Source of the DNA: Escherichia coli
GTDB taxonomy: Bacteria > Pseudomonadota > Gammaproteobacteria > Enterobacterales > Enterobacteriaceae
Reading direction: 5' to 3' (one strand)
NCBI RefSeq assembly: GCF_045037415.1
Contig: NZ_CP173438.1
Length of the DNA stretch: 64,000 bases
Numbering within the stretch: the stretch's first letter is position 1; every line of letters begins with the position of its first letter. Below the pieces are notes generated by a model, which saw only the letters and a list, made by a program, of their open reading frames with translations, was not told the origin of the DNA and searched no databases. The position numbers and the translations under genes are program-made. Below, piece after piece: positions 32,566 through 33,393 of the stretch.

Positions 32566-33393
32566 TTAGCGAAGTGTTTTTGGGGTCATTACCCGGCGAG
32601 CGCCAACATAGTGGCGCTGCCAGTAGTCTTCACTGAGAGAAGTGATTTGAATTTCCTGGCCCGTGCGCGGTGACTGAATAAATTTGCCGTTGCCGACATA
32701 CACGCCGACATGATCGGCTGTACCGCGTCCCTGAGTACGGAAGAAGACCAGGTCGCCGTTTTTCAGTTCACTACGTTCGATTGGCGCTGCATCGCGCAGG
32801 TGATACATTTCATTCGCCGTACGCGGAATACGAATTTTCACCAAATCTTTATAAGCGTAATAAACCAGACCGCTGCAATCAAAACCGGTACGCGGTGAGC
32901 TGCCACCCCAACGATATGGCTTACCAATTTGCTGCATCAGTTTATTCATTGCCACTTTTGTGGCTTTTTGCACCTTCGCTTTGTGCGCGTCGGCAAGGGT
33001 TCCTGACGCGGCATTTTTGACTTTCACACAATGCGATTTATAGCCCTTACGTTTGGTACACTTTTCGGTAAAGCTGGCTGAGGCCGTTTTATTGACGGCG
33101 TGTTTGCTGCGAGTTTTGGCGTTTTTAGAAGCGGTAATGGAAGATTTTTTAACGGAAGAAGCGGTTTTGCTTTTGGTCGTACTTTTACTGGCGGCTTTTT
33201 TCGCTGTTTTCTGGCTGGCTTTCTGGGTCTTTTGGGTGGTTGCCGTGCTTTTCTTTTTATCTGCTTTTTTGGTGATATGAGTGGTAGCAGAACTCTCCCT
33301 GGCTTGCTTTGAAGCATGGGCCATAGGCGTTAAAGGCAGGGTGGTAAAAAGTAAAGCACAGAGCGTGATCGAAATACGGTTTATCCGCGCCAC
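32566..33393 (-). CDS. mepH: NlpC/P60 peptidoglycan DD-endopeptidase MepH (YdhO)
   Basis: 275 aa; signal peptide, long K/S/T/A-rich linker, C-terminal NlpC/P60 domain (DCSGLV...H). Confidence 0.92.
   Translation of the reverse strand: MARINRISITLCALLFTTLPLTPMAHASKQARESSATTHITKKADKKKSTATTQKTQKASQKTAKKAASKSTTKSKTASSVKKSSITASKNAKTRSKHAVNKTASASFTEKCTKRKGYKSHCVKVKNAASGTLADAHKAKVQKATKVAMNKLMQQIGKPYRWGGSSPRTGFDCSGLVYYAYKDLVKIRIPRTANEMYHLRDAAPIERSELKNGDLVFFRTQGRGTADHVGVYVGNGKFIQSPRTGQEIQITSLSEDYWQRHYVGARRVMTPKTLR

Follow-up and report, generated by a model that had tools for sequence, protein, structure and literature searches.

The peptidoglycan DD-endopeptidase MepH encoded in the window analysed here, a 64,000-nt stretch of an Escherichia coli genome (contig NZ_CP173438.1), is 275 aa long compared with 271 aa in K-12, and the whole of this difference comes from one 12-bp indel, CCAGAAAGCCAG, which encodes QKAS (aa 57-60). 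It is very probable that the window carries the ancestral allele, that the K-12 allele arose from it by a slippage deletion, that the affected region is a disordered tail and that the change is near-neutral. According to this model, slipped-strand mispairing between two copies of the motif CCAGAAA would have removed one of the adjacent four-codon units QKAS|QKTA from a full-length ancestor, and the 271-aa form of K-12 would be the product of this in-frame 12-bp loss. The deletion would fall in the lysine-rich N-terminal tail of a soluble periplasmic NlpC/P60 DD-endopeptidase, a tail which appears to evolve by frequent small indels in such a way that its composition is kept but its sequence and exact length are not. 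The polymorphism as such is ordinary, and thousands of RefSeq genomes already list one or the other allele under the name MepH.

The mepH locus and its product

MepH, MepS and MepM form a redundantly essential trio of DD-endopeptidases (PMC11211486), so that a mepS mepM double mutant depends on MepH, and the degradation of MepH runs through Prc and NlpI (PMC8996183). For the K-12 enzyme, DD-endopeptidase activity on 4-3 cross-links is known from the literature. The gene in the window lies in the order grxD-mepH-sodB, as in K-12, and is 100% identical to the RefSeq-annotated mepH of strain SK1144 and others, in which PGAP uses the same gene name; the identity with SK1144 extends over 8.8 kb around mepH. 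A megablast search with the window gene returned a match in 5,425 of 5,426 complete E. coli genomes, where the gene is PGAP-annotated as mepH, with match lengths of 828 bp in some genomes and 816 bp in others. Compared with mepH of K-12 BW25113 (816 bp, 271 aa, WP_000101193.1), DNA identity is 97.3% with the gap counted, and outside the indel the two proteins are 99% identical. Genomic context and near-identity to K-12 MepH thus place the protein in the MepH/YdhO orthologue group. The coordinates of all features are collected in Table 1. A search of both strands of 31500-35200 against Rfam returned no RNA family.

The catalytic domain was identified by its match to Pfam PF00877 (MEROPS family C40), which scores 125.9 bits against a curated cutoff of 23 and in which residues 157-267 cover the full profile (positions 1-105). 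C173, in a D-C-S-G context, and H228 are invariant among 98 aligned homologues, as expected of the catalytic Cys and His of this family, while the third position of the triad aligns to a near-invariant Q240 in the same 98 sequences. NCBIfam holds no HMM specific to MepH, and its top match is the MepS equivalog at 86 bits against a cutoff of 186. Sequence matches in the PDB, which include solved NlpC/P60 structures such as that of MepS, cover essentially the catalytic domain alone; the PDB search returned no structure of MepH and no chain that aligns to most of the tail.

Table 1. Features of mepH in the window; copies and segments are given in window coordinates.
Feature	Position	Strand	Basis
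mepH (ydhO) CDS, peptidoglycan DD-endopeptidase MepH, GTG start, 275 aa	32566..33393	minus	ORF list
Signal peptide, aa 1-27 (MARINRISITLCALLFTTLPLTPMAHA), predicted signal peptidase I cleavage after A-H-A, no lipobox	33313..33393	minus	translation
Low-complexity polycationic N-terminal tail, aa 28-109, 82 aa	33067..33312	minus	composition
12-bp segment with QKAS, absent in K-12, coding strand CCAGAAAGCCAG	33215..33226 (gene nt 168-179)	minus	alignments, junction counts
CCAGAAA 7-nt direct repeat, upstream copy	33220..33226 (gene nt 168-174)	minus	sequence
CCAGAAA 7-nt direct repeat, downstream copy, the one kept in the short allele	33208..33214 (gene nt 180-186)	minus	sequence
Second direct-repeat pair, 9 nt, ACCGCTTCT (coding strand), 30 nt apart	33127..33165 (copies 33127-33135, 33157-33165)	minus	repeat search
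Conserved segment EKCTKRKGYKSHCVKVK, aa 110-126, EKC-x9-C, between tail and catalytic domain	33016..33066	minus	near-invariant columns
NlpC/P60 (C40) catalytic domain, aa 157-267, invariant C173 (DCSG) and H228	32593..32925	minus	Pfam PF00877

The 12-bp indel

The initial annotation had put MepH at 275 aa here against a length of 271 aa in K-12, and both values are correct, as seen from the ORF translation and from the BW25113 protein. It had also located the difference between the signal peptide and the NlpC/P60 domain, more precisely in the K/S/T-rich, low-complexity region at 33048-33310 (gene nt 84-346, aa 28-116), from which it quoted the string KKADKKKSTATTQKTQKASQKTAKKAASKSTTKSK (residues 42-76); the single 12-bp gap at aa 57-60 falls within this region. 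An alignment of mepH alleles across E. coli strains, which it had proposed as a check, has just this one gap, with K-12 not among the 275-aa forms. In DNA and protein alignments alike, no further length change separates the window allele from those of K-12, O157:H7, O111:H8 and other strains.

The coding-strand sequence is ...AAGAC CCAGAAAGCCAG CCAGAAAACAGCG... in the long allele and ...AAGAC CCAGAAAACAGCG... in the short allele, so the deleted segment is bounded by the two copies of CCAGAAA, which are spaced 12 nt apart and of which one is retained in the product. This is the pattern of a deletion flanked by microhomology. The placement of the segment is ambiguous for the same reason: the deletion window slides by 7 nt with the product unchanged, giving eight equivalent registers that start anywhere from 33226 down to 33219. 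In strain 042 the direct repeat is present in a 9-nt version, CCAGAAAAC, and alleles of the O111 type have it interrupted, as CCAAAAA. The adjacent 12-nt units encoding QKAS and QKTA are identical at only 8 of 12 positions, and the 12 extra bases are therefore not a fresh duplication of their neighbour. Three residues before the indel, the window-type allele has the specific substitution K54Q (A to C at gene nt 160, window 33234). Apart from this substitution and the additional QKAS, the K-12 protein resembles that of the window in its locus, signal peptide, tail composition, cysteine pair and NlpC/P60 domain, and its allele is the derived deletion form.

At the site corresponding to window 33208-33226, strain FCI23 has a frameshifted mepH pseudogene (L006, 554-1376) in which a complex loss of 5 nt coincides with the indel site, GCCAGCCAGAAAAC -> GCCGCCGAC. 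Frameshifted mepH of this type is found in only two genomes, FCI17 and FCI23, both from one study, and represents either a small clone or an assembly error shared by the two; an interpretation of the FCI23 allele as the mark of a pseudogene lineage was dropped in view of this restricted occurrence.

Ancestral state of the tail length

The longer window allele might be taken for an expanded one, yet the direction of change is the reverse. MepH of E. albertii (P0002) has 275 aa and 95% protein identity, and its gene, which can be aligned unambiguously at the DNA level, has the 12 nt in the form CAATAAAGCCAG. CFT073, the window, 042 and SMS-3-5 are long as well. We take CFT073 and the window to belong to phylogroup B2, 042 to D and SMS-3-5 to F; these are early-branching phylogroups of E. 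coli. As both E. albertii and these strains are long, the window allele is concluded to be ancestral and the K-12 allele to be the result of a 12-bp deletion, which is also the order of events that a slippage deletion would demand. This polarity is based on E. albertii as the sole unambiguous outgroup together with the early-branching E. coli groups. Outgroups beyond E. albertii, i.e. Citrobacter, Salmonella and Kosakonia, are unusable for this purpose because the alignments of 22 sequences and of 88 orthologues place gaps differently in the low-complexity stretch. E. albertii has GCAATAAA in place of the upstream CCAGAAA, which implies that the direct repeat easing the deletion is specific to E. 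coli.

The opposite order, in which the K-12 length is original and the window allele arose by a 12-bp tandem duplication in the B2 lineage, is very improbable and is already contradicted by the outgroup. The units QKAS and QKTA are similar and share CCAGAAA, as would be expected of a diverged old duplication, but a match of just 8/12 would make any such duplication older than E. coli, and the long form is not confined to one lineage but spread over strains of B2, D and F and over part of B1. P0021 and the Citrobacter proteins are likewise ungapped at the site in the 22-sequence alignment, which is itself ambiguous here.

Population frequency of the two alleles

The frequency of the two forms was determined with junction queries that were built without any 28-mer common to the other allele. 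The long junction (59-nt query) is present in 1,874 and the short junction (47-nt query) in 3,547 of the 5,426 complete E. coli genomes, which adds up to 5,421 of the 5,425 matched genomes, about 35% being long and 65% short. An independent 219-nt query taken from a short allele gave 1,874 matches in the gapped band of 90-95% identity and 3,550 above it. The exact 59-nt junction of the window, including K54Q, is found in 754 genomes, among them SK1144, ABU 83972 and Nissle 1917. Both length alleles are thus real and common, they reach high frequency in pathogens and commensals alike, and other mepH lengths are rare singletons.

These counts also refute an assembly or sequencing artefact in the low-complexity, A-rich stretch, an explanation to which we give practically no credence. 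It could have drawn on the A5-A6 runs in the tail DNA and on error-like entries at the site, namely the frameshifted mepH of FCI23/FCI17 and the compensated-frameshift proteins P0013/P0007. The exact junctions, however, recur in thousands of complete genomes that are independent of each other, and the indel, whose length is divisible by three, lies outside any homopolymer. An artefact is excluded by the fact that both forms are common among complete genomes.

Some single genomes deserve mention. In TUM2805, which has a 4.09-Mb genome, only the last 116 bp of mepH are left and adjoin grxD, and one further complete E. coli genome has no mepH match at all. The strain TR01, labelled O157:H7, carries the long allele, unlike the O157:H7 strain 3384, which is short. 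One copy of the long allele is on a record typed as plasmid.

Number of origins of the short allele

The SNP backgrounds of the two forms were compared in a sample of 16 alleles. At least three of these backgrounds include the short form, and each of the three has a close relative among the long alleles. The K-12-like short background (K-12, O121, BA22372) is matched by a long type found in O26/O103/O111 (295 genomes), the O157-like short background (O157:H7 3384, M7638) by the long TUM13936 type (54 genomes), and the short background of the ATCC 11775/MS7163/GN05064-like alleles (265 genomes; example GN05064) by the long window type. At sites 111, 294 and 396 all four combinations of indel state and base are found and the four-gamete test fails. 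From the three or more backgrounds and this failure it follows that the deletion has arisen more than once or has been spread by recombination. The indel disagrees with its neighbouring SNPs and is consequently a poor phylogenetic marker.

A single ancient deletion that was spread by homologous recombination has a substantial but less than even chance of being the right reading, the alternative being several independent deletions at the same repeat-defined site. The mepH alleles are visibly mosaic, as illustrated by HH97, which combines window-like sites 396-435 with K-12-like 3' sites, and for the O157-like background the import of a K-12-like 5' part up to nt 293 would suffice. The deletion of the ATCC 11775/GN05064 type, on the other hand, has non-K-12 sites on either side, at nt 111 and nt 295, which would leave less than about 184 bp for an imported tract, and end points defined by a repeat would be expected to yield identical deletions each time. 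The short tract that the GN05064 type would need favours at least one independent deletion.

Repetitiveness of the tail DNA

The coding DNA had been described in the initial annotation as repetitive and prone to slippage. The second half of this description is in agreement with the 7-nt direct repeats that flank the 12-nt segment; the first half holds only in a restricted sense, as there is no tandem array and the repeat content does not exceed that of codon-shuffled sequence. Tandem Repeats Finder, at a minimum score of 30, reported nothing in 32500-33500. The tail DNA consists of 41.5% A and 30% C and contains A5-A6 runs, and repeated 6-7-mers are 2.6-4 times denser in it than in the DNA of the catalytic domain. 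Their density is nevertheless no higher than in codon-shuffled versions of the same stretch, and the repetitiveness therefore follows from the amino-acid composition of the tail. A specially repetitive DNA structure was dropped from consideration on these grounds, the repeats being no more than the codon content predicts. The tail DNA is thus of low complexity without a tandem-repeat array.

Nor does the locus resemble a contingency locus, which would be made of a tandem array of identical or nearly identical units and would show many length states that differ by multiples of the unit, often with on-off switching. Apart from the result of Tandem Repeats Finder, the two units here match at 8/12 positions, and two in-frame states account for 5,421/5,425 genomes.

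Further deletions in the tail are seen among rare E. coli MepH alleles of 210-262 aa in the protein database. Twelve such alleles were tested, and each of six can be derived from a sampled reference allele by the loss of one in-frame segment of 30-183 nt in the tail, with a single 183-nt deletion accounting for two. The microhomology at these deletions, deduced from the proteins and the reference DNA, amounts to 9, 5, 5, 4, 2 and 1 nt. On the same basis, the rare 261-aa allele P0010 is explained by the loss of exactly the 30-nt unit set by the second direct-repeat pair in Table 1. The tail can fairly be called prone to small deletions between short direct repeats.

The tail also contains a 97-aa alternative-frame ORF (33024-33317, minus strand, +1 frame relative to mepH) that would encode a K/R/P-rich peptide. 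In the database proteins P0013 and P0007, which have 1 and 3 member sequences, part of the tail is read in the +1 frame before the sequence returns to the mepH frame. These compensated frameshifts are probably sequencing errors at the A5-A6 runs, and the tail they encode is still basic and of low complexity.

Signal peptide, tail and putative cysteine hairpin

The N-terminus of MepH has a basic n-region, a hydrophobic core and the putative cleavage site A25-H26-A27 | S28, and the signal peptide is highly conserved in orthologues with top-residue frequencies of 0.77-0.86. The end of the signal peptide, as read from the sequence, does not match the lipobox pattern [LVI][ASTVI][GAS]C; the sole Cys in aa 1-27 is C12 (I-T-L-C), which sits in the middle of the hydrophobic core, six residues past the charged n-region. 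A signal of the signal-peptidase-I type without a lipobox Cys implies that mature MepH should be soluble with a free N-terminal tail instead of a tether, leaving it nothing to reach from. The UniProt annotation of MepH presumably agrees with a cleaved signal and a soluble protein.

The tail contains 20 K, 16 S, 15 T, 14 A, 2 R and 2 acidic (D/E) residues, S, T and A together making up 45 positions (55%), and has a net charge of about +20. Among 88 orthologues with less than 90% identity, conservation is high in the signal peptide and the catalytic domain and poor in the tail, which is gap-rich with a length of 65-97 aa (median 82) and keeps its charge and composition. The least conserved and most gapped block of the entire protein is aa 51-60, with a top-residue frequency of 0.30 and a gap fraction of 0.42. 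Since the tail preserves composition and not sequence or exact length, a difference of four residues is most likely neutral or nearly so. AlphaFold2 models of MepH, computed from 22 and then 98 aligned sequences, were poor overall (mean pLDDT 41.8 and 51.6), and in both the tail has the lowest confidence, with a pLDDT of about 30 and no secondary structure, which is weak evidence that it is disordered. A literature search on the tail, linker or disorder of MepH/YdhO yielded nothing relevant.

Between the tail and the catalytic domain lies a conserved segment in which C112 and C122 are nearly invariant in the orthologue alignments. Residues 108-126 form a β-hairpin in both of the low-confidence AlphaFold2 models, with strands at 108-113 and 121-126, and the two cysteines may form a periplasmic disulphide. 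No description of the EKC-x9-C segment was found in the literature.

Functional significance of the length difference

The initial annotation had proposed that linker length may tune how far the endopeptidase reaches into the sacculus, a suggestion that finds no support in the protein itself. A wider version of it, in which the four residues alter the reach or engagement of the sacculus, or the binding of NlpI and turnover by Prc, and have been selected repeatedly, is improbable. With the A-H-A|S site and the missing lipobox read from the sequence, no membrane anchor is evident in MepH. Four residues correspond to about 5% of the tail, whose length in orthologues lies anywhere between 65 and 97 aa. 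By the unfolded-chain scaling law that is reportedly due to Kohn et al. 2004, the expected radius of gyration (Rg) rises from 2.61 nm for a chain of 78 residues to 2.69 nm for one of 82, i.e. by about 0.08 nm. What could speak for adaptive tuning is that the short allele makes up 65% of the genomes and has at least three SNP backgrounds, a pattern that parallel selection could produce, but both alleles remain frequent in pathogens as well as in commensals. The same observation has to be held against the neutral account, because a short allele that is the majority form on at least three backgrounds is also what selection for the deletion could produce. No literature was found on an effect of the length of the MepH tail.

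A link to protein turnover is suggested by the control of MepH through Prc/NlpI proteolysis (PMC8996183) and by its paralogue MepS (Spr), which binds NlpI by its disordered N-terminal region (PMC11211486). MepS shares the NlpC/P60 domain, with the structures 2k1g, 7v6s and 8xud aligning to MepH residues ~149-270, and like MepH it has a disordered N-terminal segment before this domain and is under NlpI/Prc control. Unlike MepH, however, MepS is a lipoprotein, and its disordered region of ~37 residues folds on NlpI via L24 and F31 (PMC11211486), while MepH has no lipobox and a polycationic K/S/T/A tail of ~82 residues. The contact between MepS and NlpI needs these two hydrophobic residues, whereas QKAS is polar and falls in the least conserved block of the tail. 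A selected effect of the deletion on turnover or binding therefore has only a slim chance. We would give marginally less weight still to a scenario in which the 12-bp deletion arose repeatedly and independently at a hotspot and was raised in frequency by altered NlpI/Prc turnover or peptidoglycan binding; if it were true, the tail would be a small evolvable regulator of cell-wall hydrolase dosage. The polymorphism is probably near-neutral.

The closest analogue of the phenomenon is p60 (Iap) of Listeria monocytogenes, another NlpC/P60 hydrolase, in which a low-complexity, hydroxyl-rich region N-terminal to the NlpC/P60 domain also varies in length between strains. In-frame deletions in its Thr-Asn repeat region, including some of 12 and 18 nt, have served as a typing marker only (PMC3768361). 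The p60 region differs in being a true tandem array, (ACAAAT)n, whereas the MepH indel has two states between 7-nt repeats and is not part of an array.

For the study of MepH, the direction of the change means that K-12, the strain in which the protein has been studied, carries the derived shorter allele, and that ExPEC/B2 strains, CFT073 and Nissle 1917 among them, have kept the ancestral form of 275 aa. The more important question is the role of the polycationic tail of ~80 residues, on which the literature search yielded nothing. The four-residue variant is a weak handle on this question, and the rare alleles that are missing 10-61 tail residues would be more informative.

The neighbouring lhr locus

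The window also differs from K-12 on the other side of grxD (33728-34075). The 4.6-kb helicase gene lhr, which lies next to grxD in K-12, is missing in the window, where only the interval 34076-34446 separates grxD from rnt (34447-35094). In SK1144, PGAP annotates just two pseudogene fragments of 99 and 126 bp in the interval between rnt and grxD. The pattern suggests that lhr underwent an internal deletion specific to this lineage.
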